NCBI GenBank assembly: GCA_030428785.1
Contig: JAUIEF010000007.1
Coordinates: 1,333-65,332, forward strand
Length of the DNA: 64,000 nucleotides
From: a bacterium
GTDB lineage: Bacteria; Planctomycetota; B15-G4
Direction: 5' to 3'
Within the stretch, counting starts at the first letter, position 1; each line of letters opens with the position of its first letter. Below, one piece after another: positions 21,824 to 59,160 of the stretch. Both the position numbers and the translations under genes were made by a program. The notes beneath the pieces were generated by a model. It worked only from the letters and a program-made list of their open reading frames with translations, had not been told where the DNA came from and ran no database searches.

Positions 21824-22093
<270 letters not shown>

Positions 22094-22201
22094 TCCTCTC
22101 GCTTCGCGAGAGTTCGGCGGCCGCTCACTTCGTGAGCGCCCCACAAGACTCCGGGGACACGACGTCGGTGGTCACCCGGCTGCGTGCTCGACGCACTGGG
22201 C

Positions 22202-22273
22202 GGGACTCCTTTCCTGGAATCGGGCGGGGCCCCCACTGGGCGTCACCCCACCCGATTCCAGGAAAGGAGTCCC
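22202..22273 (+). promoter_or_regulatory. perfect 23-bp hairpin sequestering the RBS of the four-helix-bundle gene
   Basis: GGGACTCCTTTCCTGGAATCGGG (22202-22224) is the exact reverse complement of CCCGATTCCAGGAAAGGAGTCCC (22251-22273). After one mismatch, 4 more bp pair (22226-22229 with 22246-22249), leaving a 16-nt loop. The 3' arm contains AGGAAAGGAG and ends 4 nt before ATG 22278. Confidence 0.7.
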
Positions 22274-22277
22274 TCAC

Positions 22278-22598
22278 ATGTTCGACGTCCTCGAGATCGC
22301 GATCCGCATGGTGGCCTCGCTTCGCTCGCCGTTGGCGACGCTCCAGGTGTGTGATCGCGACATGCACCGCCAGGTTCGGAGAGCTGCTGCCTCGGTGACC
22401 CTCAACATCTCCGAGGGTCAGCGTCGCGGCGGGAAGGATCGCCGGCATCACTGGCGCGTTGCGGCAGGTTCGGCGGACGAGGTGCGGACCGCGTTGCGTA
22501 CCGCGGTGGCGCTGGGTGACCTGCGCGAGGAGGACCTCGCCGAATCCTTCGAGCTCCTCGACCGCGTGCTCGCCATGCTCTGGAAGCTCACGCACTGA
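22278..22598 (+). CDS. four-helix-bundle protein (23S rRNA intervening-sequence protein / Avd-like family)
   Basis: Carries [42 protein letters not shown]. This matches the family hallmark xLRRAAxSIxxNIAEGxGR....F..IA.GSxxE. 106 aa, predicted all-helical. Confidence 0.8.
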
Positions 22599-22636: not shown

Positions 22637-22744
22637 TTCCGGTTTCGGTTTCGGTTCCGGTTTCCGATCCGGCTTCGGGTTCCGATTCGGCTTCGGTTTC
22701 GGCTTCGGCTTCGGCTTCGGCTTCGGCTTCGGCTTCGGCTTCGG
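22637..22744 (-). repeat. hexanucleotide array 2: 18 units NTTCGG/NTTCCG, inverted relative to array 1
   Basis: Counted directly. The 5' units are degenerate. The last 7 units are perfect CTTCGG (22703-22744). 22698-22744 is the exact reverse complement of 21828-21874. Confidence 0.95.
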
Positions 22745-22905: not shown

Positions 22906-23523
22906 ATGTCCGTCCGCGCCCCCGTCGTCCTCGCGCTGCTCGTCGCGACGTCGATCGCCTGCTCGACGCAGTACCACGCCACGGTGTCGAAGGACTTCAC
23001 CGTGCCGCAGACCGTCGCCGTCGTCGCCGTGGTCGACGCGCAGAACGCGGAGGGCTCGTTCCTCGTGGCGGGCATGTCGAAGGCGTTCCCGTTCGACGAG
23101 GACCTGCTCTCCGACAAGCTCACCCGCTACCTCGTGGGCCAGCGGCTCTACTCGGTGGTCGAGCGTGCATCCATCTCGCAGGCGATCCAGGAGCTGTCGC
23201 TCACGACGAGCGAGCTCTTCGACAACCGCGAGGCGCAGCAGAAGCTCGGCGTGCTGTGCAAGGCGGACCACATCGTCATCGCCCGCGCGTCGATGAGCTC
23301 CGGCTGGCTCGTGCTGCCGCCGATCTGGTGGAAGTACGCCGTGCTCGAGGCCCGGGCGATCGACGTGGAGTCCGGCCGCATCATGTGGGCGGCCCACGCC
23401 GGCGGCTGGAACTACTACGTCCTCTCGTCCGACGCGCACCTGGAACGACTCGTCGGCGACCTCTTCCACGAACTCGACGAGGGCATCGAGAACGTGCGCG
23501 CGCAGGAGGCGGCGGGCGGCTGA
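22906..23523 (+). CDS. lipoprotein, CsgG/LpoB-like fold suspected
   Basis: Strong RBS GAAGGAGGAG ends 5 nt upstream of the ATG. Lipobox LLVATSIACST. The pattern VAVVAVVD...LxDKLTRYLVGQRLYSVVERASISQAIQEL...GVLCKADHIVIARAS resembles CsgG/LpoB-type periplasmic lipoproteins. This is a by-eye assignment. Confidence 0.6.
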   Translation: MSVRAPVVLALLVATSIACSTQYHATVSKDFTVPQTVAVVAVVDAQNAEGSFLVAGMSKAFPFDEDLLSDKLTRYLVGQRLYSVVERASISQAIQELSLTTSELFDNREAQQKLGVLCKADHIVIARASMSSGWLVLPPIWWKYAVLEARAIDVESGRIMWAAHAGGWNYYVLSSDAHLERLVGDLFHELDEGIENVRAQEAAGG

Positions 23524-23565
23524 GGCGGATCCGCCGCCCCCACCGGCTCGAGGCCGCCCCATCGC

Positions 23566-23721
23566 GACCGCGGGTTCGACCGCGGGTTCGGCCTCGGCTT
23601 CGGGTTCCGCCTCGGCTTCGGGTTCGGCTTCGGCTTCGGGTTCGGGTCCGGCTTCGGCACCGGCTTCGGGTTCGGCTTCGGCACCGGCTTCGGGTTCGGC
23701 ACCGGGTTCGGGTTCGGGTTC
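23566..23721 (-). repeat. hexanucleotide array 3: degenerate GGSTTC units in the same orientation as array 2
   Basis: Begins with a tandem 12-mer GACCGCGGGTTC x2 (23566-23589). GGCTTC/GGGTTC units follow, interspersed with GGCACC and CGCCTC. Starts 43 nt after the lipoprotein stop. Confidence 0.9.
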
Positions 23722-23877
23722 GCTCCCCATCGGCGTCATGCCCAGGATCCACCGATGGACCGTTCAGCGGCCGCGGGCGCCCACCCCCTCCACGCCTCCC
23801 CCCGACACCCCCGCCCGCGGTCCGCTGCGAGGGCCGCGAGTCGAAGAAAGCCCCCCCAACCGACCCGCGCCCAGACC

Positions 23878-41681: not shown

Positions 41682-42219
41682 CTGCGGGCCGTGGGGGCCA
41701 ACGAGCGAGGACGGCCAGTATAGGATCCGGCCCCTCGACGGAAATCGTGCTGTCGGCCGCCGCCCGGTAGAGCGGATCGCGCCGCGCGAGGAGGGCGGCG
41801 ACCTCCGCGGCGGGCGGGAGGCCGGTGAGCGGGGGTCGCGGGCGGGCCGCCGAGCGGGCGACGAGCGTCTCGACCGACGCATGGAGGTAGACCACGAACG
41901 CGGGCCGCGCCAGGGCCTCGAAGGCCTCGCCGCCGAGGACCGCCCCCCCGCCCGTGGCGACGACGTGGTCGCGGAGGTCGGCGGCCGCGAGGAGCACGGC
42001 CTGTTCGTGGGCCCGGAAGGCGTCCTCGCCGTCCTCCGCGAGGACGGCGTCGGCGCCGCGCCCCGCGCGGGCGGCGAGCGCCTCGTCGAGGTCGACGAAG
42101 GGCCGGCCGGCGCGGCGGGCGACCTCCCGGCCGAGGGTCGTCTTGCCGCACGCCCGGAGCCCGATGAGGACGAGGTTGCCGGAGCCGTCGTCGGGGCTCG
42201 TGGGCCGCCCGGGGGTCAT
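41665..42219 (-). CDS. aroK: shikimate kinase
   Basis: Same frame as track ORF 41665..44010, trimmed to ATG 42219. Walker A LIGLRACGKTTLG, then VVATGGGAV. 184 aa. The 3' end overlaps the next gene's start by 17 nt. Confidence 0.75.
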   Translation of the reverse strand: MTPGRPTSPDDGSGNLVLIGLRACGKTTLGREVARRAGRPFVDLDEALAARAGRGADAVLAEDGEDAFRAHEQAVLLAAADLRDHVVATGGGAVLGGEAFEALARPAFVVYLHASVETLVARSAARPRPPLTGLPPAAEVAALLARRDPLYRAAADSTISVEGPDPILAVLARWPPRPADDSTR

Positions 42220-42290
42220 GCGCAGTCTGGAGCCGGGGGCCGGTCTCCCCGGGGCGCCGGAACCGGCGTCGCGCGCGGGGAGGGGGGAGT

Positions 42291-42368
42291 TGGTAGTCCC
42301 AAGGGGATTCGAACCCCTGTCTGGTGCGTGAGAGGCACCTGTCCTAGACCTGACTAGACGATGGGACC
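42291..42368 (-). tRNA. tRNA-Glu (anticodon CUC), CCA encoded
   Basis: The reverse complement reads GGTCCCA TC GTCT AGTCAGGTCT AGGAC A GGTGC CTCTCAC GCACC AGAC AGGGG TTCGAAT CCCCT TGGGACT A CCA. This is a full cloverleaf and closely parallels canonical bacterial tRNA-Glu. Confidence 0.9.
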
Positions 42369-46182: not shown

Positions 46183-46881
46183 ATGACGACGCGCGTCGCG
46201 CACTACCCGTTCACGTCGCGGCAGGCGTGCGTGCTCGTGCCCGCCGAGGAGCGGGCGTCGGGCGCGCGGCCGCCGCTGCTCGTCGTCGTGCACGGCTACG
46301 CGCAGACGGGCGACCGTCAGCACCGCTGGATGGGACGCGCCGTGCCGCCGGCCTTCGCGGCGGCGTTCCCCGACGGCTTCCACCCGTTCGAGGTGCGCAA
46401 GCAGGGTCGCCCGCCGCGCATCGGCTACGCGTGGTACGTCTTCAGCGGCGACCGACCGGCGTTCCTCGCGAGCCTCGCGCGCGCGAGCGAGGCGCTGTGG
46501 GAGCTCGTCGACCGCCTCGCCGACGACCTCGACGCCGACGCGTCGCGCGTCTTCCTCGCGGGCTTCTCGCAGGGCGCCTACCTGGTCAACCACGCGGCGA
46601 TGACGCGCCCCGACCGTTGCGCCGGCTGGATCGCGCAGTGCGGCAACTTCCGCGAGGACTACCTGCAGGGCGCCGTGCCGGACCTCGCCGGCACGCCCGT
46701 GCTGCTCCAGTACGGAGAGCACGACACGGCGCTGCCCGAGGGCGCCGCGGAGTCCTGCCGCGAGCTCATCACGGGCTTCGGCGCGGACGTCACGACCTCC
46801 GTCCACGACGCCCCCCACGCGATCACGCCCGGCATGGCGGACGAAGCGCGGGACTGGCTCGCCGCGCACGCGGGCGGGTAG
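46183..46881 (+). CDS. alpha/beta hydrolase (phospholipase/carboxylesterase-type esterase)
   Basis: Carries LLVVVHGY and the nucleophile elbow GFSQGA. The C-terminal end has a D...H arrangement (HDTALP, DAPHAI). Confidence 0.7.
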   Translation: MTTRVAHYPFTSRQACVLVPAEERASGARPPLLVVVHGYAQTGDRQHRWMGRAVPPAFAAAFPDGFHPFEVRKQGRPPRIGYAWYVFSGDRPAFLASLARASEALWELVDRLADDLDADASRVFLAGFSQGAYLVNHAAMTRPDRCAGWIAQCGNFREDYLQGAVPDLAGTPVLLQYGEHDTALPEGAAESCRELITGFGADVTTSVHDAPHAITPGMADEARDWLAAHAGG

Positions 46882-47091
46882 CGCACGGCGCGTGACGCGC
46901 GGCGCCCGACCCGGAGCTCACTCGCGCGTTCGCTCGTCTCCCCGCCCGACGTCCGACGTTCCCGCACGCGCGACCCACCGTCTCGCGCGGCGCCCGACGC
47001 CTTGCCTCCCCGCACGCCGAGCGCGCCTCCCCGCCTCACGCGGCGCCCGACGCCCAGGCTCCGCCCGCTCGTTCGCGCGACACGTCCCCAG

Positions 47092-47361
47092 CGAGCGCGG
47101 GGGTGTGGGACGCCGTCCCCACCGAGTCCCCGTGCACGAGCCGCGTCCGACGTGCCGGGTGCGAGGGGAGGGTCCCCCCGAACGCATGGAGACGAGCCGA
47201 AGAGCAGCCGCGACCGGGCCGCAGGCCCGGAGCGGCGGAGGCAGCGAGCACGCGTCCCCGAGCGGCCGCGGGCGGGGGGACCCTCCCCTCGCACCCGGCC
47301 GCCACCGACGCCTCGCCCCCACCCACTCGCCGCGAGCGGCGCCCCACGATCCCGTCGCGAG
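47092..47361 (-). repeat. structured 3'-end element, type 1, copy 1a (270 nt)
   Basis: Aligns with 47969-48258 in the flanks and loop. The stem arms are 47155-47179 and 47274-47298, 25 bp and all Watson-Crick. The loop is 94 nt. The right end abuts the yjbQ stop codon (47362-47364). Strand is the inferred sense, co-oriented with the upstream gene. Confidence 0.85.
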
Positions 47362-47781
47362 TCACTCCCCCGTCAGGTGCAGCACGATCGACCGCCGATG
47401 AGCCCGCGTCCGGTGCTCGGCGACGAAGAGCCCCTGCCACGTGCCGAGGGCGAGCGCGCCGTCGACGACGGGGATCGTCTCGCTCGTGCTCGTGACGGCC
47501 GCGCGGAGGTGCGCGGGCATGTCGTCGGGGCCTTCGGCGGTGTGCGTGTGCGCGGGGTCGCCGTCGGGCGCGAGCCGGCCGAGCCAGGCGACGAGGTCGC
47601 GGGTTGCGGAGGGGTCGGCGTTCTCCTGGATGAGCAGGCTCGCCGAGGTGTGCCGGCAGAACACGGTGAGCAGCCCGGTGCGGATCCCCGAGCCGCGTAC
47701 GAAGTCCGCGACCTCGCGGGTGATCTCATGGAGCCCGCGCCCGGGCGTCCGCACCTCGAGGATGGTCTGGGCGTGGGTCAC
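47362..47781 (-). CDS. yjbQ: YjbQ/UPF0047 family protein (secondary thiamine-phosphate synthase family)
   Basis: GTG start. 139 aa. Carries HEITREV, LLTVFCRHTSASLLIQENADPS, DDMPAHLRAA and LGTWQGLF, the family hallmarks. Confidence 0.85.
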   Translation of the reverse strand: MTHAQTILEVRTPGRGLHEITREVADFVRGSGIRTGLLTVFCRHTSASLLIQENADPSATRDLVAWLGRLAPDGDPAHTHTAEGPDDMPAHLRAAVTSTSETIPVVDGALALGTWQGLFVAEHRTRAHRRSIVLHLTGE

Positions 47782-47968
47782 GGTTCAGGCAGCGGGTGAG
47801 GGTCGGCGGACGAGCGGTGAGAGCGTAACCGCGCGCCGCCTGGTCCGAGTGACCGATCCGCCGCGCGAGCCTCCCGCGCGAGCACGAGCTCCCCCGCGAC
47901 TCCATGACCGTCCCACGCGGCACCCGCCGTCGCCACCCCCGAGCCCCCCTCGCGCGCCCTCCCCCGGT

Positions 47969-48258
47969 GAGCGCCGGGGTGTGGGCCGCCTCACCCACCG
48001 GGTCCCCGTGCACGGTGCTCGTCCGACGTGCCGCGGGCGCGGAGAGGCTCGACCCTCCCTCCCCGGGAGACTTGAGTCGAGCCGAGTGGCAGCCGCGATC
48101 GGGCCGAAGGCCCGGAGCGGCGGAGGCAGCTGACCGAGGTTCCCGAGCGGCCCTGTCGGACGGGGAGGGAGGGTCGAGCCTCTCCGCGCCCGCGGCCGCC
48201 ACCGACTCCCCCCCCGCGCCCCCGCGCGGCGCTCAGCGTCCCACGATCCGGACGCGAG
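47969..48258 (-). repeat. structured 3'-end element, type 1, copy 1b (290 nt)
   Basis: The stem arms are 48031-48064 and 48162-48195, 34 bp and all Watson-Crick. Their sequence is unrelated to the arms of copy 1a. The loop is 97 nt and its core is conserved with copy 1a. The right end lies 3 nt from the tRNA-Gln 3' end. Confidence 0.85.
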
Positions 48259-48261
48259 CGA

Positions 48262-48335
48262 TGGTTCCCGAACTAGGACTCGAACCTAGATTACCTGATC
48301 CAGAGTCAGGCGTCCTGCCATTGGACGATTCGGGA
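48262..48335 (-). tRNA. tRNA-Gln (anticodon CUG), CCA encoded
   Basis: The reverse complement reads TCCCGAA T C GTCC AATGGCA GGAC G CCTGA CTCTGGA TCAGG TAAT CTAGG TTCGAGT CCTAG TTCGGGA A CCA. Full cloverleaf with a U1-A72 pair, as in many tRNA-Gln. Confidence 0.88.
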
Positions 48336-48486
48336 AACCGGGTCGAGATCGGCATGATTATGGGGCTCGCGGGGCGCGGGTCAACGCCCGGCGGGGTCCC
48401 TCCCGCTCCCGCCCCGCCGACCGCTCGCCGCACGTCGTCACGCACCACGTCCCGTACCTCTTACCGAACCGGGATCCGGGGACCCC

Positions 48487-49380
48487 ATGTCCGACACCGC
48501 GTCCACCTTCCTCGGCCTGCCGGACGCCGGCGAGGCCGCCGACATCTGTCTCGTCTGCGCGCCGTACGACCTCACGAGCACGTACGGCAAGGGCGCCGAC
48601 CGCGGTCCCGAGGCGTTGCTCGCGGCGTCGGGGAGCGTGGAGACCTGGGAGGAGGAGACGGGCTTCGACCTCGAGACGATGCGCTACACGGTGCGTCGGC
48701 CGGAGGACGCGGCGGCGTTCGGGCGGCTCCCGCCGGAGGAGATGGTCGCGGTGCTGCGTCGGCTGCACGACGAGGTGCTCGACGCGGGGATGATCGGGCT
48801 CGGGCTGGGCGGCGAGCACTCGATCACGTACGGGCAGTTCGCGGCCTTGCAGGCGCGGCACCCGCGGCTCGCGGTGCTGCAGATCGACGCGCACCTCGAC
48901 CTGCGGGACAGCTACGACGGCAGCAAGCACAACCACGCGTGCATCGCGGCGCGGTTCCTCGAGGACGGCGCGCCGCTCGTGCAGGTCGGCATGCGCAGCT
49001 GCAGCCGCGAGGAGGCGGCGTTCGTGGAGGCGCGCGGGTTGACGCCGTTCTGGGCGCGGCACGTCGCGGGCAAGGTCGCGTACCACCGCGAGGTGCTCGA
49101 CCGGCTCGCGGGCCGGCCGGTGTTCGTGACGGTGGACCTCGACGGCTTCGATCCGTCGGTCGTGCCGTCGACGGGGACGCCGGAGCCGGGCGGGCTCGAC
49201 TGGTACGACGTCGCGCGGCTGCTCGCGACGGTCGGGCGGCACTGCGAGGTCGTGGGCGCGGACATCACGGAGCTCGCGCCGACGGAGGGCGCGCACAACC
49301 GGCCGAGCGAGTTCCTCGCGGCGCGGCTCGCGTCGAAGATGGTCGCGTGGTTCTGGGCGCCGGGGCGGCCGCGGACCTGA
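48487..49380 (+). CDS. speB: agmatinase / arginase-family ureohydrolase
   Basis: Mn-binding motifs GGEHSITY, DAHLDLRD, VTVDLDGFDPS and ADITELAP. The symbol is tentative, because substrate cannot be read from the sequence. Confidence 0.75.
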   Translation: MSDTASTFLGLPDAGEAADICLVCAPYDLTSTYGKGADRGPEALLAASGSVETWEEETGFDLETMRYTVRRPEDAAAFGRLPPEEMVAVLRRLHDEVLDAGMIGLGLGGEHSITYGQFAALQARHPRLAVLQIDAHLDLRDSYDGSKHNHACIAARFLEDGAPLVQVGMRSCSREEAAFVEARGLTPFWARHVAGKVAYHREVLDRLAGRPVFVTVDLDGFDPSVVPSTGTPEPGGLDWYDVARLLATVGRHCEVVGADITELAPTEGAHNRPSEFLAARLASKMVAWFWAPGRPRT

Positions 49381-49382
49381 CG

Positions 49383-49434
49383 CGCGCGGGAGGCGCGGCG
49401 ACATGCCGCCGCGCGCGAGCGACGCCTCCGCGCG
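49383..49434. terminator. GC-rich nested hairpin between convergent genes (possible bidirectional terminator)
   Basis: The outer stem is about 12 bp with one bulge (49383-49395 paired with 49423-49434). It encloses a 5-bp inner hairpin (49395-49399 with 49405-49409). No U-tract. Confidence 0.3.
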
Positions 49435-49455
49435 GTCGGCGCGGGGCGCGTGCGG

Positions 49456-49965
49456 TCAGGGCCGGTCGGACTCGAGCTCGCGGTACGGCGAGCGCGACGC
49501 GAGCCAGCAGAGGACGAAGCCCGCGAGGCAGAGCCAGGTGAGGACGGCCGGCGTGCCGCCCGAGATGAGGGCGGCGAGCGGCCGGCCGTCGGACACCTCG
49601 CCGCCGGACCAGCGCACGGCGAGCGCGGCCCACTGCACGGTGCCGAGCAGGAACCCGCGTCGGACGACGACGAGCACGCGGCCCGTGTCGTGCGAGAGCC
49701 CCCAGCTCGCGACGGCCCACACGAGGAGGAAGCAGCCGGCCGCGGACCACTCGCGGAGGACGTCGCCGACGCCGAAGCCCAGCGCGAGCACGGCGAGCAC
49801 CGCCGCGACCGCGCCGAGGAACACGCCCGCGAGGAGCGCCTCGGGAGACGCCGGCGCCGTGCTGACCTGCGAGACGTGCGGGTCGTCCGCGACGCTCGTC
49901 GGCGGCGCCGTCGGGACGAGGCGACCGCCCGCCGCCCGTTCGTGGATGCGTGCCTGACCGCTCAT
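49456..49965 (-). CDS. membrane protein, function unknown (169 aa)
   Basis: Complete track ORF. GGGAGGG lies upstream of the ATG. Four hydrophobic segments (e.g. LLAGVFLGAVAAVLAVLALGFGV, PAVLTWLCLAGFVLCWL). Confidence 0.5.
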   Translation of the reverse strand: MSGQARIHERAAGGRLVPTAPPTSVADDPHVSQVSTAPASPEALLAGVFLGAVAAVLAVLALGFGVGDVLREWSAAGCFLLVWAVASWGLSHDTGRVLVVVRRGFLLGTVQWAALAVRWSGGEVSDGRPLAALISGGTPAVLTWLCLAGFVLCWLASRSPYRELESDRP

Positions 49966-50290
49966 GCCCGTTGCCCTCCCTGACCGGTCGTGGACGACAC
50001 CACGACCCTGTTTCGTTCACCGCCGAACGATGACAGCCGACCATCGGGACCCGACCGCCGGCCCGGGAGGTGCGTCTGGACGACCGGCTTGCAGGGATCT
50101 CGTCTCCCGAGACACTGCCTGTCGGACAGGCCCGGTGCAAGCACGGATCGCGCGTTCCCGGACGCGTCCACGGAAACGCATGACCGGGAGCGGATGGAAA
50201 CGGTGCTGCGGGTGCAGGTGGAGCGTGTCCGGCGCGGGGACGTGGGGGCGAGCCGGTGTCCTCGGAGCGCGGGCGGTCGCCGCAGGCCCG

Positions 50291-51124
50291 TCAGGTCGAG
50301 GCCGCGTCCGCCGCGGCGACCTCGCCGCCGCTCTCCTTGGAGCGCAGGGCGAGCGTCGCGAGGACCAGGGCGCCGGCGCCGATGCCGGCGATCGTCGCGA
50401 TCGAGGCGCTCAACGGCAGCGGCTCCACGGCGAGCAGGTTGGTCGTCGGCAGGCGGAACATGTCCATGCCCGTGACCTGGAAGAGGATGTTGCGCGCCTG
50501 GAAGCTCATCGAGAAGGCCGCGAAGCTCTGCGGCAGGTTCGCGGTGAGCATCTCGAACAGGAAGACGTAGACGAAGGACGTCATGACCGCGCGGCGCAGG
50601 AACACGCCGAAGAGCTGGAACACCGCCGCGTACGCGAGGACGAGGAAGCACACGACGAGCACGACCGAGGCGAGCTCGGGGAGATAGTGCGTGAGCGCGT
50701 CCTCGAAGCCGAGCAGCGAGGTCACGTAGAAGACGAGCAGCGGCGGCAGCACGAAGAGCAGGCCGCGACGCGCCGCCGCGAACCAGCGCCCGACGACGAG
50801 CGCGGCGCGCGAGACGGGCAGGCCGACGACGTAGTGCGCCGTGCCGCTCGCCCACTCGTCGCCGAAGGCCGCCGTGCCGAGGAAGATCATCGTGAGCGGC
50901 ACGATGAACGCGAGGTAGATGCCGGTGACGCCCTGCGCGAAGCCGGCGAAGCCCGCGCCGCGCGACGAGTCGGAGAGCGTGAGCCGCAGGATCTGCACGA
51001 GGACGGGCAGCCACGCGAGGAGCACCATGCCGACGAGGCGTCGCCCGCGCGGGGCGCCGGAGGCGGTGGTGCGCGCGGCGGCGAGCGCGGCGGCGAGACC
51101 GCGGGGCGGGGTCGGGCGGGTCAT
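50291..51124 (-). CDS. ABC-2-type transporter permease
   Basis: 277 aa with about 6 TM segments. The start overlaps the upstream ATPase stop by 4 nt. Confidence 0.65.
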   Translation of the reverse strand: MTRPTPPRGLAAALAAARTTASGAPRGRRLVGMVLLAWLPVLVQILRLTLSDSSRGAGFAGFAQGVTGIYLAFIVPLTMIFLGTAAFGDEWASGTAHYVVGLPVSRAALVVGRWFAAARRGLLFVLPPLLVFYVTSLLGFEDALTHYLPELASVVLVVCFLVLAYAAVFQLFGVFLRRAVMTSFVYVFLFEMLTANLPQSFAAFSMSFQARNILFQVTGMDMFRLPTTNLLAVEPLPLSASIATIAGIGAGALVLATLALRSKESGGEVAAADAAST

Positions 51125-52068
51125 GACGCCTCCCGGGACTGCGTGAGGTAGGCGAAGACGGAGCGCAGGTCCTCGTCGAGCGGCTCGATGGTGCGCACCC
51201 GGAGCTCGCCCGCGGCGGCGGCGCGCCCGAGGAAACGGGTGAGCCGGTCGGGGTGCATCGTCTCGACGACGACGGCCTCCGGCTCGAGGGTCAGGCCGAC
51301 GAGCAGGCCCTCCTCCGGCTCCTCGAGCAGACGGCGCGCGAAGGCGCGCGGGTCGGCGGCGGCGAGCCGGATGCGGCGCGCGTGCGTGTCGAGCGTGTCG
51401 CGGATCTCCGTGACCGTGCCCTCGGCGAGCACCTGTCCGTGCCGCATGAGCACGATGGAGTCGGTCATCGCCTCGATCTCGTGCAGCACGTGGCTGCTCA
51501 CGACGACGGTCTTGCCCTCGTCGCCGAGCTCGCGGATGACGCGGATGTAGTCGCGCCGCATGACCGGGTCGAGGCCGGTGAGCGGCTCGTCGAGCACGAG
51601 GACGTCCGGCTCGTGGAGCATGGCCTGCGCGAGCTTGAGGCGCTGGCGCATGCCCTTGCTGAAGCCGCCCGAGCGGCGTTCGATCGCGTCCGGCAGGCCG
51701 ACGCGCTCGAGGACCTCGACGGCGCGCTTCGACGCCGCGGCGGCGTCGAAGCCGCGCATGACCGCCTGGTCCTCGAGGAAGCGCTTGGCGGTGACGTCGT
51801 CGTAGAGCGCGTCCGCGTCGGCGACGTAGCCGATGCGCGCGAGCGACGGCAGGTGGTTGCGCACGGGCTCGCCGTCGAGCAGCACGCGCCCGCTGCCCGG
51901 CGACGCGAGGCCGACGATGAGCCGGATGAGCGTCGTCTTGCCGGCGCCGTTCGGGCCGAGCAGGCCCGTGACGCCGGGCCCGAGCTCGAGGTCCACCGCG
52001 TTGAGCGCGATGACGTCGCCGAACCAGCGGCTCACCTTCTCGAGCTTCACGAGGCCGCGCGCCGTCAC
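51121..52068 (-). CDS. ABC transporter ATP-binding protein
   Basis: Same frame as track ORF 51121..52926. GTG 52068 overlaps the upstream stop. Walker A GPNGAGKTT, signature FSKGMRQRL, Walker B VLVLDEP. Confidence 0.85.
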   Translation of the reverse strand: MTARGLVKLEKVSRWFGDVIALNAVDLELGPGVTGLLGPNGAGKTTLIRLIVGLASPGSGRVLLDGEPVRNHLPSLARIGYVADADALYDDVTAKRFLEDQAVMRGFDAAAASKRAVEVLERVGLPDAIERRSGGFSKGMRQRLKLAQAMLHEPDVLVLDEPLTGLDPVMRRDYIRVIRELGDEGKTVVVSSHVLHEIEAMTDSIVLMRHGQVLAEGTVTEIRDTLDTHARRIRLAAADPRAFARRLLEEPEEGLLVGLTLEPEAVVVETMHPDRLTRFLGRAAAAGELRVRTIEPLDEDLRSVFAYLTQSREAS

Positions 52069-52991
52069 GCCACGATCTCCACCGGGCGCACGCGGCGCAG
52101 CACGACGGCGAGGCACAGGAGCGTCCAGCCGCCGAGGATGCCGGCCGACCACGCGACGGGCATGTCCGGGTAGCGCGCGAGCTCGACCTGGTTGTCGAGG
52201 ATCCACGCCATGCAGCGCGAGAGGTTGAAGTGCAGCGAGACGAGGTGCACCTCCGGATTCAGGAACGCCTCCTGGAGGTTGCCGCGCAGCAGGCCCTCGA
52301 CCATGACGAGGAAGCCGACCCACAGGATCGACGCGTTGCGCGCGCGCTTGCTGAGCGCGGACGCCGCCGTCACGAGCACCGAGAGGAACGCGACGAACAC
52401 CGTGCCGGCCACGATCGAACGCCAGAAGAGCCCGGCCAGCTCGGCCGTCTGCCCCGGCTCGAAGCCCACGAGGAACGCCTGCACGAGGATGAGCAGGCAC
52501 ACGGGCAGCACGGTGATGAGCGTCAGGAAGAACCCGATGATGCCGAGCTTGCCGAGCACGTACTGCCACACGGAGAGCGGCCGGCTCAGGTACATCTCGA
52601 GCGCGTTCGTGCGGCGGTCCTCCGCGACGAGTCCCGCCCCCACGACGACGCACAGGATGAGGCACACCCAGATCTGCAGCTCGAGGAAGTAGCCCCACAC
52701 GTTGTCCGCGGTGGGCGACACGAGCTGGAGGATGCCGGACTGCTCGATGCCCTGCGCGATCTCCGGGTAGGTCGCGACGTTCGCGCGGAAGTAGAACGCG
52801 AGGTACAGCGCGCCGAGCGCGAAGAGGAACGGGCCGAACGCCCAGAAGCTCAGCAGCTGCCCGAAGATCTTGCGCTTGAAGATCGCCGCGAGCCCCGTCG
52901 AGACGCCGCGGTCCATGATGACCCACACGCCGCGTACCGGCTTGTCGCGGTCGCCGTCCCAGCGCGCGTAGCTCCTGTCGTGGACGACCAT
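52065..52991 (-). CDS. ABC-2-type transporter permease
   Basis: Same frame as track ORF 52065..53618, trimmed to ATG 52991 (ATGA overlap with the upstream ATPase stop). About 6 TM segments. Confidence 0.65.
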   Translation of the reverse strand: MVVHDRSYARWDGDRDKPVRGVWVIMDRGVSTGLAAIFKRKIFGQLLSFWAFGPFLFALGALYLAFYFRANVATYPEIAQGIEQSGILQLVSPTADNVWGYFLELQIWVCLILCVVVGAGLVAEDRRTNALEMYLSRPLSVWQYVLGKLGIIGFFLTLITVLPVCLLILVQAFLVGFEPGQTAELAGLFWRSIVAGTVFVAFLSVLVTAASALSKRARNASILWVGFLVMVEGLLRGNLQEAFLNPEVHLVSLHFNLSRCMAWILDNQVELARYPDMPVAWSAGILGGWTLLCLAVVLRRVRPVEIVA

Positions 52992-53917
52992 CAGCGACCG
53001 CCCAGCACGTCGATGAGCGCGTCCTCGAGGCTCACGCGCACGGGCGTGAGCCGGCGCACGATGACCTCGCTCTCCTCCGCCGCGCGGAAGAGCGGCTGCG
53101 TGTCGGCCGCGAGCGAGACGCCCAGCTGGAGGTGCTGGTCGCGCGTCTGCATCACGGGGATCCCGTGGCGCTCGCACGCCGCGCGGAAGGCCTCGACCGG
53201 CCCGGCGACGGTGACCTGGCACGCGTCCTCGGTCGCGGCCTGCAGCTCGGCGACCGTCGCGGAGCGCACGACCGTCCCCTGCCGCATGACGACGACGGAC
53301 GTGCAGACCTCCTCGACGTCGCGCAGCAGGTGGCTCGAGAGCACGACGTGGATGCCCTTGTCGCGGGACAGCGTCCGCACGAGCCCGAGCATCTCGGCGC
53401 GGCCCTGCGGGTCGAGGCCGTTCGTCGGCTCGTCGAGGAAGAGCAGGTCCGGGTCGTGCACGAGCGCCTGCGCGAGCTTGATGCGCTGCCGCATGCCCGT
53501 GCTGTACGTCGAGACCATGCGGTACCGCGCCTCCTCCATGCCGGCGAAGAGCAGCACCTCGTGCGCGCGACGGCGGGCGTCCGCGTCGGGCATGCCGGAG
53601 AGACGCCCCGCGTACCACGTCGCCTGGAAGCCCGTCATGTCCGGGAAGGCCGCGTCGCGCTCCGGCATGTAGCCGACGCGTCGGCGCAACGTCGACGCGC
53701 GCCGTGACACCTTGCGCCCGAGCAGCGTCGCGCGTCCCTTGTGGAGCGGCACGAGCCCGAGCAGCATCTTGATGAGCGACGACTTGCCCGCGCCGTTCGG
53801 GCCGAGCAGACCCACCGCGCCGCCCCCCACCGTCGTCGTGACGTCGTGGAGCGCGACGTGCTTGCCGTAGCGGACCTCGACGTCCGTGAGCTCGAGGATG
53901 GGCGCGGAGTCCGTCAC
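52991..53917 (-). CDS. ABC transporter ATP-binding protein
   Basis: Track ORF 52991..53992 trimmed to GTG 53917, which overlaps the upstream stop. Walker A GPNGAGKSS, signature YSTGMRQRI, Walker B LLFLDEP. Confidence 0.85.
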   Translation of the reverse strand: MTDSAPILELTDVEVRYGKHVALHDVTTTVGGGAVGLLGPNGAGKSSLIKMLLGLVPLHKGRATLLGRKVSRRASTLRRRVGYMPERDAAFPDMTGFQATWYAGRLSGMPDADARRRAHEVLLFAGMEEARYRMVSTYSTGMRQRIKLAQALVHDPDLLFLDEPTNGLDPQGRAEMLGLVRTLSRDKGIHVVLSSHLLRDVEEVCTSVVVMRQGTVVRSATVAELQAATEDACQVTVAGPVEAFRAACERHGIPVMQTRDQHLQLGVSLAADTQPLFRAAEESEVIVRRLTPVRVSLEDALIDVLGGR

Positions 53918-54198
53918 GCGGCGGCCCCCGAGGCGTCGCCCGCGAACGGACCGCCCGGCCGGCGGAGCAGCGCGACGACGCTCGACAGGCACCAGAAGCC
54001 CTCGAGCCCGACGAACACCGGCTCGTCGATGCGGCCCGAGTACGCGGCGAGCAGCCCGGCGCCGAGCGCGTTCGCCGTGAGGTATCGCACCGAGTCCGGC
54101 CGGCAGCGCCCCGTCTGGTTCACGAGGTACGCCCCCACCAGGAACAGGAACCCGACCACGGAGAGGGTCTTCCAGACCATCCCGGGCTCGTCGGGCAT
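53914..54198 (-). CDS. small membrane protein (94 aa), first gene of the ABC cluster
   Basis: Track ORF 53914..54510 trimmed to ATG 54198. Three hydrophobic segments (VVGFLFLVGAYLV, LGAGLLAAYSG, GFWCLSSVVALL). Confidence 0.45.
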   Translation of the reverse strand: MPDEPGMVWKTLSVVGFLFLVGAYLVNQTGRCRPDSVRYLTANALGAGLLAAYSGRIDEPVFVGLEGFWCLSSVVALLRRPGGPFAGDASGAAA

Positions 54199-54427
54199 GC
54201 CGTTCCTCTCCTCGGACCTCGCTGGTCGCACGCGAGGGGGCAGTCTACCGACGCGCCCTCTCCCGATGAATGGCCGGCCCGTGTCCGCATGGCGCGGTTG
54301 TTGGGCGAGCGACCGTCGGCGTTGCAGCGCGACCCCGCGGCCACCTCGTCCCGCGGCGTGCGCCCTCCGGTCCGCCCCGCCCCGCCGTTGGCCCGGCGCC
54401 CCCCGATCCGGCATCATCCACCGGATC

Positions 54428-55855
54428 ATGAGCTTCCACCTGTACGACTCGATGCGCCGCGAGAAGGTCCCCTTCGAGCCCCTCATCCCGGGCAAGGTGG
54501 CCATGTACAACTGCGGCCCGACGGTCTACAGCGCCGCGCACATCGGCAACTTCCGATCGTTCCTCTTCGCCGACGTCCTGCGCCGCTGGCTCGAGGTCTC
54601 CGGCTACGAGGTCACCCAGGTGATGAACATCACCGACGTGGGCCACCTCCGCGACGACGACCCCGAGCAGGGCGCCGACAAGATGGAGGAGGCCGCGAAG
54701 AAGGAGCAGCTCGACCCCTGGAAGATCGCCGAGAAGTACACGGCGCTCTTCTTCGAGGACCTCGACACGCTGCGCATCCAGCGCGCCCACCAGTACCCCC
54801 GCGCCACGGACCACATCCCGCAGATGATCGAGCAGATCCAGCAGCTGCTCGACTCCGGCCACGCCTACGAGGCCAGTGGCGCCGTCTACTACGACGTCTC
54901 GAGCTTCCCCGCCTACGGCCGCCTCTCCGGCAACACCGGCGACGACCTCATCGCCGGCGCGCGCGTCGCCGTCGCCGAGGAGAAGAAGGACCCGCGCGAC
55001 TTCGCCCTCTGGAAGAGCGACCCCCACCACCTCATGCAGTGGGACTCGCCCTTCGGCCGCGGCTTCCCCGGCTGGCACATCGAGTGCTCCGCCATGAGCC
55101 AGTCCATCCTCGGCGAGACGCTCGACCTCCACACCGGCGGCGAGGACAACGTCTTCCCCCACCACGAGTGCGAGATCGCGCAGGCCGAGGGCGCCACCGG
55201 CAAGCCCTTCGTCCGCCACTGGATGCACGCGCGCCACCTCATGCTCGACGGCGGCAAGATGAGCAAGTCGCTGGGCAACCTCTACACCATCGGCCAGCTC
55301 GCCGAGATGGGGCACGACCCCGTCGCCGTCCGCTTCGCCCTGCTCCGCGTCCAGTACCGCCAGGTGCTCAACTTCACGCTGCCCGGCCTCGAGGAGGCCG
55401 CGACCGCCGTGCGCCGCCTGCGCCTCTTCGCCACCGACATGGAGGAGGCCGCCGCCGGCGCCGAGCCCGGCGACCCGCCCGCGTGGCTCACCGCCGCCGT
55501 GCAGCGCTTCGACGAGTCCATGGACGACGACCTCAACACCTCCGGCGCGCTCGACGGCGTCTTCACGCTCATGAACGAGGCGAACCGCCGCAAGGTGACC
55601 GGCCCCGACGCCGCCGCGGCCCTCGCCGCCCTGCGCCGGATGGACCGCGTGCTCGACGTCGTCCGCGAGGACGCCCCCGAGGACCTCGACGCCGAGGTCG
55701 AGGACCTCGTCCGCCGCCGCACCGAAGCACGCGCGGCGAAGGACTGGGCCACCGCCGACGAGATCCGCGACCGCCTCGCCGAGCTGGGAATCGAACTCCT
55801 CGACGGCAAGGACGGCAAGGTGCGGTGGCGACGCACGGGCGCGGGCGCGAGCTGA
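54428..55855 (+). CDS. cysS: cysteine--tRNA ligase
   Basis: Same frame as track ORF 53741..55855, trimmed to ATG 54428. Carries MYNCGPTVYSAAHIGN (HIGH motif), GWHIECS and KMSKSLGN (KMSKS motif). Confidence 0.92.
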   Translation: MSFHLYDSMRREKVPFEPLIPGKVAMYNCGPTVYSAAHIGNFRSFLFADVLRRWLEVSGYEVTQVMNITDVGHLRDDDPEQGADKMEEAAKKEQLDPWKIAEKYTALFFEDLDTLRIQRAHQYPRATDHIPQMIEQIQQLLDSGHAYEASGAVYYDVSSFPAYGRLSGNTGDDLIAGARVAVAEEKKDPRDFALWKSDPHHLMQWDSPFGRGFPGWHIECSAMSQSILGETLDLHTGGEDNVFPHHECEIAQAEGATGKPFVRHWMHARHLMLDGGKMSKSLGNLYTIGQLAEMGHDPVAVRFALLRVQYRQVLNFTLPGLEEAATAVRRLRLFATDMEEAAAGAEPGDPPAWLTAAVQRFDESMDDDLNTSGALDGVFTLMNEANRRKVTGPDAAAALAALRRMDRVLDVVREDAPEDLDAEVEDLVRRRTEARAAKDWATADEIRDRLAELGIELLDGKDGKVRWRRTGAGAS

Positions 55856-55898
55856 GGGGCCGACTTTCCCGGTCGGTGGACTGCGTGCGCGGGACGGT

Positions 55899-56114
55899 GG
55901 GAGCGTTCCGCTCGGGCGGGCGCGGCGGGCCGGACGCGCTGGCCGAGAGTCGGTGGCGCCGACCGTGAGGAGACACATGGGCCCCGTGCTCAGACAAGTC
56001 CTCGGGCCTTCGGCCCTGCGGGAGATAACTGCGCGCGGGGCCCATGTGTCTCCTCACGTCGCATCCGGAACGGTTTCCACGGCGCGTCCGGCCCGTCGCG
56101 ACCTTCCTCGCTGC
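55899..56114 (+). repeat. structured 3'-end element, type 2, copy 2A (216 nt)
   Basis: Reverse-complement homolog of 56499-56729. The stem arms are 55965-55985 and 56037-56057, 21 bp and all Watson-Crick. The loop is 51 nt and contains GGGCCTTCGGCCC. It begins 43 nt after the cysS stop. Confidence 0.85.
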
Positions 56115-56498
56115 ACTCACACCGCGACCCGCGGGGATGGGTCCGCGCGGAGAGGGACGCCGGCGGACGACACCCGCGGGGAGACGACGTCGCGTGTGGC
56201 CGTGCATCGCGCGTTCCGCGCTCGCACTCGTCGGCGGAAATCAGGCAGGACGCCGAGTGCCGGGAGCCCATCGGCGTCGCGAACAGCAGGCGTCATGCCG
56301 GCGGTCAGCCGTCACGTCGGGAGCGAAGCGATCCGACTTCACGTGGTCCGTGACGAGCCGAGCGGTTCTCTCGCGCGTTCCCCGCGCGGCGTCGGCTTCC
56401 GTGCCCCGACCCGCTCCATGCCGCCGGCCCGCCCGCACGGATCGGTGCGGTCCGTGCGCCGACCCATCGACGCCTCCCACTCGCGTCACGATGGGAGC

Positions 56499-56729
56499 GC
56501 AGCGAGGGAGGACGCGTCGGGACGGACGCGCCGTGGAAGTCGTTCCGGATGCGACGTGAGGGCATGTCTGCGGCCCACGCGCAGTTATCTCCCGCAGGGC
56601 CGAAGGCCCGAGGACCTCTTCGATCATAGGCCCCTTCTTGAGCATGGGCCGCAGACATGCCCTCACGGTCGGCGCCACCGACCCCACCCCAGCGCGTCCG
56701 TCCCGCCGCGACCGACCGAGCGGAGCGCC
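56499..56729 (-). repeat. structured 3'-end element, type 2, copy 2B (231 nt)
   Basis: The stem arms are 56556-56577 and 56645-56666, 22 bp and all Watson-Crick. Beyond the first GTGAGG, the arm sequence differs from copy 2A. The loop is 67 nt and shares GCGCAGTTATCTCCCGCAGGGCCGAAGGCCCGAGGAC with the reverse complement of 2A. It ends 7 nt from the stop of gene 56737..59160. Confidence 0.85.
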
Positions 56730-56736
56730 CTGGACG

Positions 56737-59160
56737 TCACCCGTCGCCGAGGTAGCCGAGCGCCTTGAGCTCCGCGAGCGCCGCCCCGGCCGCGTCGCTC
56801 CCCACCGCGTGGCCGCCCTCCGGCGCCGTGTACCGTCCGAGGAACCACGCGAGGCGGCGTCGCAGCTCGGCGACGTCGTCGGGGCGGACCGCCGCGACGT
56901 CCTCGTGCTCGCCGGGGTCGTCGGTGAGGTCGTAGAGCGAGGCGGGTGACGCGGCGTCGTCCGTGCGCGGGCCGATGAGCTTGGTCCCGTCGCTGAGCAC
57001 GGCGCGGCGGTCGTCCGATTCCGCGACGCGCACGTCGGGGCGCGCCGTGTCGACGGCGGCACCGCGCGGCTCGCGGCCGCCGCTCCGCGCGTCGCCGCCT
57101 TCGGTCGGCGTCGTGCCGCGGTGTGCTCGCAGCGAGCGGCCCGGCAGGTCATCGGGGACCGGCAGGCCGACGACGTCGAGCACCGTCGGCACGAGGTCGA
57201 GGCCCGAGACGGGGACGTCGCTCGCGCCGGGGCGGGCGTCCGGGTAGCGCACGACGAGCGGCACGCGGAGCTGCTCGGCGTGGAGCGAGGCGCCGTGGCC
57301 CAGGTGGCCGTGCTCGAGGAAGCCCTCCCCGTGGTCGCTCGTGAAGAGCACGAGCAGCGGCTCGTCGCCGACGCGCGCCTCGAGCTCGCGCAGGAAGGCG
57401 GCGACGTGCGCGTCCATGCCGGTCACGAGGCCGTCGTAGAGCGCCTCGACCCAGGCGGCGTCGGCGGGGTCGAGCGACAGCTCGCCGCGGTTGCACGGGT
57501 CGAGGACGTTGTGCGTGTCGACCTCGAGGTCGCGCAGCGGACCGGCGTAGGCCGGGTCGGTCCAACGGTCCGTGCGCTCGTAGGGCGCGTGGACGGCGTA
57601 GGTGTGCAGGAAGAGGAAGACCGGCCGCTCGCTGTCGCGCGCGGCGACGAAGTCGAGCGCGGCGCTCCAGTCGAGATCCTTGGGGTCGCGCGTGTCGTAG
57701 CGCTCGAAGCCCGCGTCGCAGCCGTAGACCGGGCGCAGGTAGCCGCCGCCCGTCAGCGCGCGGGTCTCGTAGCCGGCGTCGGCGAGGCGCGACGCGAGGG
57801 TCGTCGCCGTGTCGCCGAGCGCGGCGCTCGCGCGGTCGACGCCGTGCTGGTGCACCGCGAGGCCCGTGAGGAAGGAGACCGTCGACGGCAGCGTCCAGGG
57901 CGCGGTCGACACGGAGTCCGTGTAGACGACGGCGCGCTCGGCGGCCCACGCGTCGAGCGCGGGCGTCGTCGCGCGCGCCGCACCGTAGGCCGCGAGGCGG
58001 TCGGCGCGCAGGGTGTCGACGTCGACGAGCACGACGTGCGGTCGGTCGGGCACGCGCGCCGCGCCTCCGCGGAGGCGCAGGTCGGCCCAGAGGCCGTAGT
58101 CGTGGAGCGCGTCGCCGGCGGGCCCCGGCTCCGTGACGAGCCGCAGCGCCACGCGGCGTCCGCGGAAGCGCGCGAGGTCGACGACGGCCTCGGTCCACGC
58201 CTCGCCGACGTCGTCCGCGCCGACGGTCGCGCTCCACACGCGCTCGACGGTCGCCGTCGCGGAGCCTGAGTCCGGCGCACCGCCGGCCCCGTCGACCGCG
58301 CCGCCTCCCGCCCGTCCCTCGACGACGACCTCCACCGCGAAGGTCGCGCCGTCGCCGCGGCGGGGCGCGCGGCGCACGACGCCGTCCTCGATCGTCCAGC
58401 CCTCGGGCGAGACGCCGACCGCGACGTGCAGCCGGTCGGCGCGCAGGACGCCCGCCGGCAGCTCGAGCACGGACGGCGCGGCGAGCAGCACCGCGTCGCG
58501 CGTCACGTCGTCGAGCGTCGCCCGCGTGCGCAGGTCCGCCGGCGCCGGCTCGTGCCCCGTGAGCGCGCGCCCGCGCTCGACCCGCGCGAACTCCGCGACG
58601 GCCGGCACGCTGCCCACGAGGCTCACGCCCCGCGGCGGCCCCTCCGACACGGCGAGCACCATGTGCTGCCCGCGGTACCAACCCGCGAAGCGCTCGGGCA
58701 CGGGCGCCGCGTCGCCGAAAGACCAGCGCGGAACGTCGCGGCCGTCGACGCGCGCGACGGGCTCCGGCGCGCCCTCCACGAGCGGCAGCGGCGGTCGCGC
58801 CCACCAGAGGTCGCCGCGGCCGTGCGCCTCGAGCGTCGCGACCCACTCCGGCGGCATGGCCTCGGCGCGCTGCCACGCGAGCGGCGGCATGGGGACCTCG
58901 ACGCGCACGGGACCGCCGAGCGTCTCCGCGACGTCCGGCGGCAGCGCGTGCGCGGGCGCCGCGAGGAGTCGCGCGCCGTCGAGGCGCTCGAGCAGCCCGT
59001 CACCCGGTCGCCACTCGCCGTCGGTGCGCGCGACGGGTACCGCGCGCTCCCCGCCCGGCGCGGCGATCGTGCCCGGCACGTCCCCGCCGCACGCGACGAC
59101 GGCAAACGCGACGACGCACGCGACGAGTCCCCGTCGCGCGCGCCGCGCCCCGCCCGTCAC
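56737..59160 (-). CDS. sulfatase-like hydrolase/transferase lipoprotein (alkaline phosphatase superfamily) with a large N-terminal domain
   Basis: GTG 59160 overlaps the rbfA stop. Lipobox AFAVVACGG. The C-terminal half carries VVLVDVDTLRADRL, LVLFTSDHGEGFLEHGHLGHG. No clear CxPxR motif. Confidence 0.75.
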   Translation of the reverse strand: MTGGARRARRGLVACVVAFAVVACGGDVPGTIAAPGGERAVPVARTDGEWRPGDGLLERLDGARLLAAPAHALPPDVAETLGGPVRVEVPMPPLAWQRAEAMPPEWVATLEAHGRGDLWWARPPLPLVEGAPEPVARVDGRDVPRWSFGDAAPVPERFAGWYRGQHMVLAVSEGPPRGVSLVGSVPAVAEFARVERGRALTGHEPAPADLRTRATLDDVTRDAVLLAAPSVLELPAGVLRADRLHVAVGVSPEGWTIEDGVVRRAPRRGDGATFAVEVVVEGRAGGGAVDGAGGAPDSGSATATVERVWSATVGADDVGEAWTEAVVDLARFRGRRVALRLVTEPGPAGDALHDYGLWADLRLRGGAARVPDRPHVVLVDVDTLRADRLAAYGAARATTPALDAWAAERAVVYTDSVSTAPWTLPSTVSFLTGLAVHQHGVDRASAALGDTATTLASRLADAGYETRALTGGGYLRPVYGCDAGFERYDTRDPKDLDWSAALDFVAARDSERPVFLFLHTYAVHAPYERTDRWTDPAYAGPLRDLEVDTHNVLDPCNRGELSLDPADAAWVEALYDGLVTGMDAHVAAFLRELEARVGDEPLLVLFTSDHGEGFLEHGHLGHGASLHAEQLRVPLVVRYPDARPGASDVPVSGLDLVPTVLDVVGLPVPDDLPGRSLRAHRGTTPTEGGDARSGGREPRGAAVDTARPDVRVAESDDRRAVLSDGTKLIGPRTDDAASPASLYDLTDDPGEHEDVAAVRPDDVAELRRRLAWFLGRYTAPEGGHAVGSDAAGAALAELKALGYLGDG

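Follow-up and report, generated by a model that had tools for sequence, protein, structure and literature searches.

The repeats known as ERIC/IRU and Correia (NEMIS), together with sequences resembling MITEs (MITE, miniature inverted-repeat transposable element), are imperfect palindromes of 100-300 nt that occupy transcribed intergenic regions, give rise to long RNA hairpins and are non-autonomous. Integron attC sites are also imperfect palindromes; they lie at the 3' ends of genes, are recognised less by their sequence than by their structure, and have a variable centre, RYYYAAC/GTTRRRY boxes and a length of 57-141 nt. Class C (IIC) group II introns insert after intrinsic terminators, and 'I-shaped' terminator hairpins that are poor in U-tracts are often reported in bacteria of high G+C content. 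Repetitive extragenic palindromes (REPs) are found mostly between open reading frames (ORFs) that are convergent or unidirectional, no more than 20 bp from the upstream ORF's 3' end, and frequently pair up as inverted dimers; the unit is 20-40 bp long, and in the CGTC-tagged families it has a stem of 8-9 bp and a loop of 4-5 nt (PMC3733652). Here we describe four related long-hairpin elements that lie immediately downstream of genes in a 64,000-nt stretch of a Planctomycetota genome (GenBank assembly GCA_030428785.1, contig JAUIEF010000007.1, positions 1,333 to 65,332), referred to below as the window. We lean, with a little better than even confidence, towards the reading that they belong to a previously undescribed non-autonomous palindromic repeat family (REP/BIME, ERIC or MITE-like) that has spread in one GC-rich (74%) uncultured Planctomycetota lineage. 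Their placement matches the known behaviour of REP-type repeats; the kind of feature is ordinary and the sequence is new.

Four hairpin elements downstream of genes

The survey for copies covered the 64-kb window, whose G+C content is 74% and whose approximately 45 predicted genes form a housekeeping region (nusA-infB-rbfA, cysS, trk genes and others); yjbQ and cysS have their closest named homologues in metagenome-assembled genomes of Planctomycetota. A repeat finder and blastn confirmed four related long-hairpin copies, and there is no fifth within the 64 kb. The copies fill only three intergenic regions, between 46.9 and 56.8 kb, as two neighbouring pairs that we call family 1 (1a and 1b) and family 2 (2A and 2B).

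Copy 1a (47031-47361, minus strand) comprises a long hairpin at 47086-47361 and a tail of about 55 nt (47031-47085) that is also homologous to 1b. It stands 0 nt from the stop codon of yjbQ (UPF0047 by Pfam; 47362-47781, minus). Copy 1b (47908-48258, minus) begins 3 nt past the CCA end of a tRNA-Gln gene (CTG anticodon, CCA encoded; 48262-48335, minus; ARAGORN and Rfam) and lies in addition on the 5' side of yjbQ, some 126-180 nt before its start. The family-1 copies form a direct repeat that flanks this gene. The second pair is inverted and occupies the convergent spacer between cysS (54428-55855, plus; Pfam) and a sulfatase-family gene (56737-59160, minus; Pfam), with the 3' end of each gene facing one copy. 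Copy 2A (55888-56143, plus), downstream of cysS, has its near end 33-48 nt beyond the cysS stop, the figure varying with the choice of 55888, 55899 or 55903 as its boundary; copy 2B (56469-56743, minus) ends 7 nt from the sulfatase stop. An alpha/beta hydrolase gene (Abhydrolase_2 by Pfam; 46183-46881, plus) is convergent with yjbQ, and two of the three copy-bearing regions are convergent spacers, the third being a tRNA-to-ORF spacer.

The first-pass annotation had placed the four copies just 3' of genes, at distances of 0, 3, 7 and about 43 nt and all in the same orientation, and both the coordinates and the strands held when they were rechecked. On the sense strand, by which we mean the strand co-directional with the adjacent upstream gene, all four copies read GTCGGTGGCG...stem...GGGCCTKCGGCCC...stem...CACGTCG. 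Each copy is most similar to its immediate neighbour, with identities of 72-80% for 1a/1b and 76-80% for 2A/2B. By blastn, the family-1 homology joins 47031-47361 to 47908-48258 (72% over 356 nt) and is longer than first reported, and the family-2 match joins 55903-56143 to 56469-56728 (76%). The 325 nt between 2A and 2B (56144-56468) showed no similarity by blastn to the copies or to the other sequences compared, and are missing in relatives.

The remaining parts of the spacers contain smaller features. What is left of the hydrolase/yjbQ spacer (46882-47030, minus) carries GTCGGGCGCCGCG units, of which there are three (46898-46910, 46986-46998 and 47039-47051, the last within the 1a tail); these units are similar to the junction module of family 2, GTCGGTGGCGCCGACCGTGAGG. 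The stretch past the cysS stop (55856-55887, plus) contains a small CCGAC...GTCGG hairpin and an extra GTCGGTGG at 55872-55879. The rest of the tRNA-Gln/yjbQ spacer is at 47782-47907 (minus), and beyond the tRNA gene lies an arginase-family gene (48487-49380, plus). The two spacers flanking yjbQ (46882-47361 and 47782-48261) are each exactly 480 nt long with a mutual homology of only about 330-350 nt, and the equal length may be coincidence. A second tRNA-to-ORF junction in the window (42218-42368, minus), in which about 70 nt separate a tRNA-Glu gene from the ATG of a shikimate-kinase-like ORF, has no element.

Anatomy of the elements

The elements are approximately 250-350 nt long and follow one plan. 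In sense-strand order, an imperfect outer arm leads to the GTCGGTGGCG junction, a perfect inner arm, the apex, the complementary inner arm, CACGTCG and the second outer arm. The apical region spans 49-95 nt and contains a GGGCCTKCGGCCC mini-hairpin. In family 2 the GTCGGTGGCG junction itself folds as a small hairpin, GTCGG-TGGCG-CCGAC, and CACGTCG is followed by a GGAA-N4-TTCC mini-hairpin. The outer arms pair along tens of nt as terminal inverted repeats, for instance at 73% for 55888-55939/56082-56133 and at 75% for 56493-56536/56687-56730. Across the window GGGCCGMAGGCCC has four exact occurrences against 1.1 expected, and CGCCACCGAC has five against 1.2 expected, four of them inside copies.

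The inner stems are perfectly Watson-Crick paired over 27 bp (1a), 36 bp (1b), 23 bp (2A) and 23 bp (2B), with no G-U pair in 109 bp, and their sequence differs from copy to copy. In 1a the stem (47154-47299, minus) is formed by arms at 47154-47180 and 47273-47299 around a 92-nt apical region with the mini-hairpin GGGCCGCAGGCCC at 47216-47228. In 1b (48030-48196, minus) the arms are 48030-48065 and 48161-48196, with the apical mini-hairpin at 48101-48113. The arms of 2A (plus) lie at 55964-55986 and 56036-56058, with the GTCGGTGGCGCCGAC mini-hairpin starting at 55949 and the apex at 56004-56016, while those of 2B (minus) lie at 56555-56577 and 56645-56667, with the junction motif at 56673-56682 and the apex at 56597-56609. 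Fold z-scores of the four copies range from -3.9 to -7.6.

Comparison of 1a with 1b reveals that every substitution and indel in the inner stem is mirrored in the opposite arm. Over the whole predicted hairpin there are also one-sided changes that break pairs, affecting 14 pairs in 1a/1b and 17 in 2A/2B; as the inner stems are perfect, these changes sit in the outer stems and the apical helices. The elements are not coding, because the 1a/1b alignment contains 1-nt indels. Quasi-palindromes can mutate by template switching or conversion between their arms, and indels mirrored exactly from arm to arm are the outcome that would be expected of such a process.

Empty and filled sites in relatives

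Syntenic relatives cover 60-74% G+C with the same gene order. The closest is L063 (hereafter W2), whose yjbQ is 91% identical to that of the window. A group of four contigs (L052-54 and L059, 'S2'; G+C 68-70%) has a yjbQ of 80% identity, and L064 and L145 ('S2b') have a yjbQ 92% identical to that of S2. More distant are L055-57 (yjbQ 75%, G+C 60-61%), L060 (GCA_029245865.1; cysS 82% identical, G+C 60%), L061 (a 5.29-Mb contig; cysS 80%, G+C 65%) and L062 (cysS 82%).

The orthologous sites in these genomes are compact. The hydrolase/yjbQ spacer is 480 nt in the window and 46-47 nt in L060 and L055-57, where it contains a small GAGCGC-N6-GCGCTC hairpin. The spacer from tRNA-Gln to yjbQ, 480 nt long in the window, measures 54 nt in W2 and 37 nt in each of S2, S2b and L060, and the cysS and sulfatase genes overlap by 22 nt in L060 and are 25 nt apart in L061, against 881 nt. 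Since the sites are compact in syntenic relatives, the four copies are, on this sequence comparison, lineage-specific insertions relative to the genomes compared. Copies 1b, 2A and 2B occur in the window lineage only among these relatives, and 1b is missing even from W2. By eye, the final approximately 45 nt of the window tRNA-Gln/yjbQ spacer resemble the 54-nt W2 spacer, which would place the 1b insertion right at the end of the tRNA; a computed local alignment did not confirm the resemblance, giving a weak match (score 21) inside 1b.

The site after yjbQ differs in being filled in four species (window, W2, S2 and S2b). In W2 the first 58 nt past yjbQ are clearly homologous to 1a before the contig ends. 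In S2 a complete hairpin of about 230 nt follows, with a 26-bp inner stem containing two mismatches; its 5' junction, GATGGTGGGGTCG, has only GGTGG in common with the window motif, and its 3' junction is GACGTCGG. In S2b GGGTCGGTGGGATCG precedes the stem, after which the contig ends. In the yjbQ-side elements of the four species, GTCGGTGG precedes a long stem, with its sense unchanged throughout, and a CGCTCRGG-A motif is common to the start of the apical region.

A second and different hairpin element adjoins the hydrolase stop in S2 and S2b (L059 1960-2141; L145 3300-3475). It has an AT-containing core, GCTGTTTTC...GAAAACAGC, and is orthologous between the two (75% over 122 nt); in S2b it has GCGTCGGCTCGGTGGCG ahead of the hairpin, in the sense of the hydrolase gene.

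Comparison with described systems

The elements share with REP/BIME and REPIN sequences (GTAG- or CGTC-tagged; Di Nocera et al. 2013, PMC3733652) their character as extragenic palindromes and a presumed transcription by read-through. In location the likeness is close: two convergent spacers and one tRNA-to-ORF spacer are occupied, at 0-43 nt from gene ends, and 2A and 2B form an inverted pair. They differ in their inner stems of 23-36 bp and apical regions of 49-95 nt, compared with 8-9 bp and 4-5 nt in CGTC-tagged REPs, and in having a junction-plus-outer-stem architecture; nor was a RAYT seen in the window. There is no GTAG tag, and the CGTC within CACGTCG is at the 3' foot of the inner stem and not at a 5' head, in a register that shifts by 3 nt between families 1 and 2.

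With ERIC/IRU, Correia (NEMIS) and MITE-like repeats the elements share presence and absence at orthologous sites, and they have terminal inverted repeats as MITEs do. They show no sequence similarity to these families and no recognisable target-site duplication, and no related insertion sequence is known. To our knowledge, none of them has been described as having a perfect inner stem whose sequence changes from copy to copy. The elements resemble 'I-shaped' terminators in being GC-rich hairpins straight after a gene with no U-tract; their stems are, however, several times longer, the whole element is about 270 nt, relatives do without them, and 1b lies between a tRNA gene and a probably co-transcribed ORF.

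It was proposed in the first-pass annotation that the elements might be mobile sequences targeting gene ends, by analogy with attC sites or class C group II introns. In its general form, as insertions, the proposal is supported by the compact sites in relatives and by the lack of 1b in W2, but neither analogy survives. The attC comparison fails because the elements have no RYYYAAC/GTTRRRY (R and L) boxes at their ends and are two to five times longer, there is no integrase in the window, and the neighbours are core syntenic genes, not cassettes. Class C introns are similar in inserting just past genes and in the orientation of transcription, but the elements lack intron RNA domains, a reverse-transcriptase ORF and any Rfam intron match, and they abut a stop codon or CCA instead of a terminator hairpin.

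Database searches did not connect the elements to a known family. At the gathering score only the two tRNAs of the window match Rfam; at E values up to 10 the matches are generic miRNA-precursor hairpins at 27.6-31 bits, against 85-100 required, and cow-rumen-1 at 14 bits, against 53.4. No transposase, integrase, reverse transcriptase or HUH enzyme was found among the approximately 45 predicted window proteins. A two-motif scan (GTCGGTGGCG N45-75 GGGCCTKCGGCCC) of 185,579 species genomes, one per species, returned 49 single hits in unrelated phyla and no multi-copy genome. These hits were rejected as copies, being mostly coding sequence or ordinary terminators with no hairpin architecture, and are attributed to chance. 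A strict three-motif pattern had no hits in JGI metagenomes, viral contigs gave none, and blastn against plasmids gave no match. A metagenome scan for orthologous sites of the yjbQ locus yielded relatives at up to 67% identity among the matches listed, and a degenerate junction-motif search proved too unspecific at 74% GC.

Strength of the placement rule

The agreement of all four copies had been taken as suggestive. The shared orientation is real, but the copies are not four independent trials: with two pairs (1a/1b and 2A/2B) in three regions the four-of-four statistic is weak, representing about three to five independent events when relatives are counted. A conservative count gives three independent orientation events; a generous one gives five, all co-oriented (the yjbQ side, which the clade has in common; that of the hydrolase in S2b; 1b; 2A; and 2B), with a nominal probability of about 0.03. 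We regard the orientation rule as suggestive, not established. Ancestral spacers of 0-54 nt mean that a harmless insert would necessarily come to lie near a gene end, and an insert in a convergent spacer is bound to be 3' of the two genes. It remains noteworthy that no copy lies in the window's larger divergent spacers (150-230 nt), and that the elements sit right against the upstream gene's end (0, 3 and 7 nt) instead of being scattered through the spacer.

Origin and possible roles

On the repeat-family reading, units of approximately 250-350 nt have inserted in very short spacers just past a stop codon or a tRNA CCA, and the mobilising enzyme would be encoded outside the window. That the copies come in adjacent pairs, of which one is direct and the other inverted, speaks for local duplication or for movement over a short range. 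The elements are probably read through from the upstream gene, which would place them within a 3' untranslated region (UTR), a tRNA trailer or an intercistronic spacer; the RNA hairpin, if it acts, would probably do so in processing or in stability, as a long double-stranded substrate or a block to exonucleases, and not as a canonical terminator. The perfect inner stems would be upheld mainly at the DNA level, through template switching or conversion between arms. Placement at 3' ends and co-orientation could arise from selection against insertions in promoters and coding sequence in a very compact genome, to which some insertion preference for gene ends may add.

Several observations weigh against this explanation. 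Its standing as a repeat family rests on four window copies and on orthologous or related copies in three relatives. Families 1 and 2 have in common only the architecture and three short motifs, with no link by blastn, and their common descent is something we infer. Classical REPs, with their 20-40 nt, are only about a tenth of the size of the elements (250-350 nt). Neither a transposase nor a master copy is present in the window, and comparison of filled with empty sites revealed no recognisable target-site duplication, only CGCG-type strings at both ends, which carry no information in DNA of 74% GC. Retention of the element after yjbQ in four species, with its motifs conserved, is explained by a host function no less well than by a selfish repeat. 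The asymmetry in folding between the two strands, described below, falls within the spread of coding controls (random coding windows, with a standard deviation of 15.6 kcal/mol for sense minus antisense).

The main rival, which we consider possible though unlikely, is a host-selected RNA module at the 3' end, in the form of non-canonical terminators, insulators of convergent genes, or stabilising or processing hairpins. Here the lineage would have recruited and copied hairpins since a GC content of 74% makes U-tract terminators hard to encode, and orientation would be fixed by the fact that a functional RNA comes from one strand only. The element after yjbQ, kept in four species with GTCGGTGG and CGCTCGGG-A in the same orientation, favours this explanation, and the conserved junction mini-hairpins and conserved apical GGGCCUUCGGCCC follow the pattern of a structured RNA. 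In addition, 2A and 2B face each other like an insulator pair, and the convergent genes on either side of them overlap in a relative. In five of five elements the sense strand is rich in G+T (GC skew +0.02 to +0.06) and its fold is the more stable of the two strands' by 4-19 kcal/mol, with 34 G-U pairs against 18 across the four window copies. In the coding controls the fold asymmetry is tied to GC skew (r = -0.77), and transcription-associated C-to-T bias would give the same sign; the control spread that arises from skew downgrades strand folding to weak evidence for an RNA role. Other syntenic relatives manage without an element at all three sites, with spacers of 0-47 nt, and the absence of G-U pairs together with the mirrored indels is more typical of DNA-level homogenisation than of selection on RNA. 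The one-sided pair-breaking changes indicate that the hairpin is decaying outside its inner stems.

Termination is a disfavoured form of this role. No U-tract follows any of the four stems, the sequence after them being GC-rich, and no terminator-like site was predicted at any copy, which agrees with the first-pass observation that the stems are not canonical intrinsic terminators. A sigma-70-like promoter (TTGACC-16-CATAAT, 48384-48357, minus), the sole such match in 11.5 kb, lies upstream of tRNA-Gln, and its two hexamers are conserved in a relative (L052 3725-3760). As yjbQ starts 37-54 nt past the tRNA in relatives, the two genes are, judged from this arrangement, probably co-transcribed. 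A strong terminator at 1b, inside that unit, would silence yjbQ and is unlikely unless yjbQ has gained a new promoter. The earlier suggestion of a 3'-UTR, processing or termination module is thereby narrowed: as an RNA module it draws weak support from the yjbQ element in four species and from strand folding, and termination is disfavoured.

Rather improbable, in our estimate, is that the elements are DNA-level recognition sites, single-stranded or cruciform, for an enzyme encoded elsewhere, either an HUH/Y1 transposase (RAYT/IS200) or a tyrosine recombinase, with GTCGGTGGCG and CACGTCG as unpaired recognition or cleavage tags. Perfect Watson-Crick inner stems beside conserved unpaired motifs are also seen in REPs, IS200/IS605 ends and attC, and there is insertion polymorphism between close relatives. 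The CGTC at the stem foot recalls CGTC-tagged REPs (PMC3733652), but its place on the sense strand is 3' of the stem, and in length the stems are 3-4 times those of REPs, with far larger apical loops. The lack of such an enzyme among the window genes, the absence of attC boxes and the core, syntenic nature of the flanking genes also speak against it.

We give a similarly low credence to a stronger version of mobility, in which a structured module homes to the first nucleotides past gene ends (stop codons, tRNA CCA) in fixed orientation and then serves as the structure of the transcript 3' end. The module would insert in a manner tied to transcript ends, or with the help of a dedicated protein able to read the GUCGGUGG/CACGUCG junction, so that placement reflects the insertion mechanism and not selection after insertion.

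That there is no rule at all, only two local duplications in two or three expandable spacers with position and orientation a small-sample coincidence, is very unlikely: the nearest kin of each copy is its immediate neighbour, only three regions are involved, two of them convergent, and no collection searched held a multi-copy genome, but families 1 and 2 share their architecture and three motifs across 8 kb, three other species have related elements in the same orientation (including the hydrolase-side motif in the hydrolase sense), and the 150-230 nt divergent spacers are empty.

Should the repeat family prove abundant in its lineage, uncultured Planctomycetota would provide a clear example of invasion by palindromic repeats. 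The five or six related species offer a natural series of empty, singly filled and doubly filled orthologous sites, which could help to separate insertion preference, selection and RNA function as causes of 3'-end placement, a question that concerns REP-like elements generally. Proteins of the window recur in run ERR3428548, and exact matches to them were confined to short Logan contigs that break at the hairpins. Short-read Logan contigs from several samples stop inside or just before the perfect inner stems (L001 at window position ~48059; L052, L053 and L054 40-66 nt past yjbQ; also L063 and L064). Perfect stems of 27-36 bp break short-read assemblies, and such elements are thus probably under-represented in metagenome-assembled genomes.

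Other features of the window and its relatives

The largest non-coding block of the window is made up of long hexanucleotide arrays of CCGAAC (x44), CGGCTT (x17.5) and CGGCTT/CGGGTT (x ~12), at 21828-22090, 22640-22744 and 23565-23722. The arrays flank a 23S-rRNA-IVS/four-helix-bundle gene (22278-22598, PF05635) and a CsgG-like lipoprotein gene (22906-23523). A separate feature, at 22161-22300, is a perfect 23-bp hairpin (22202-22224/22251-22273, 26-nt loop) with a fold z-score of -7.4. It was considered as a fifth copy of the elements and rejected, as it has only the 8-nt GTCGGTGG in common with them and sits on a start codon. Its 3' arm includes AAGGAG, which resembles a Shine-Dalgarno sequence and precedes the ATG of the four-helix-bundle gene by 5-10 nt, and an outer stem, GACGUCGGUGG/UUCGACGUC, also covers the start codon; from its sequence the structure has the look of a translational lock.

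The lower-GC relatives have TCGGTGG, oriented in the sense direction, at 9-40 nt ahead of start codons (L060 3824(-), 5549(-) and 9959(+); L055 7008(+)), with window position 17125(+) also listed. Three of its ten occurrences in L060 fall in the non-coding 7% of the sequence, and the motif may have a role in 5' leaders that is independent of the hairpin elements.

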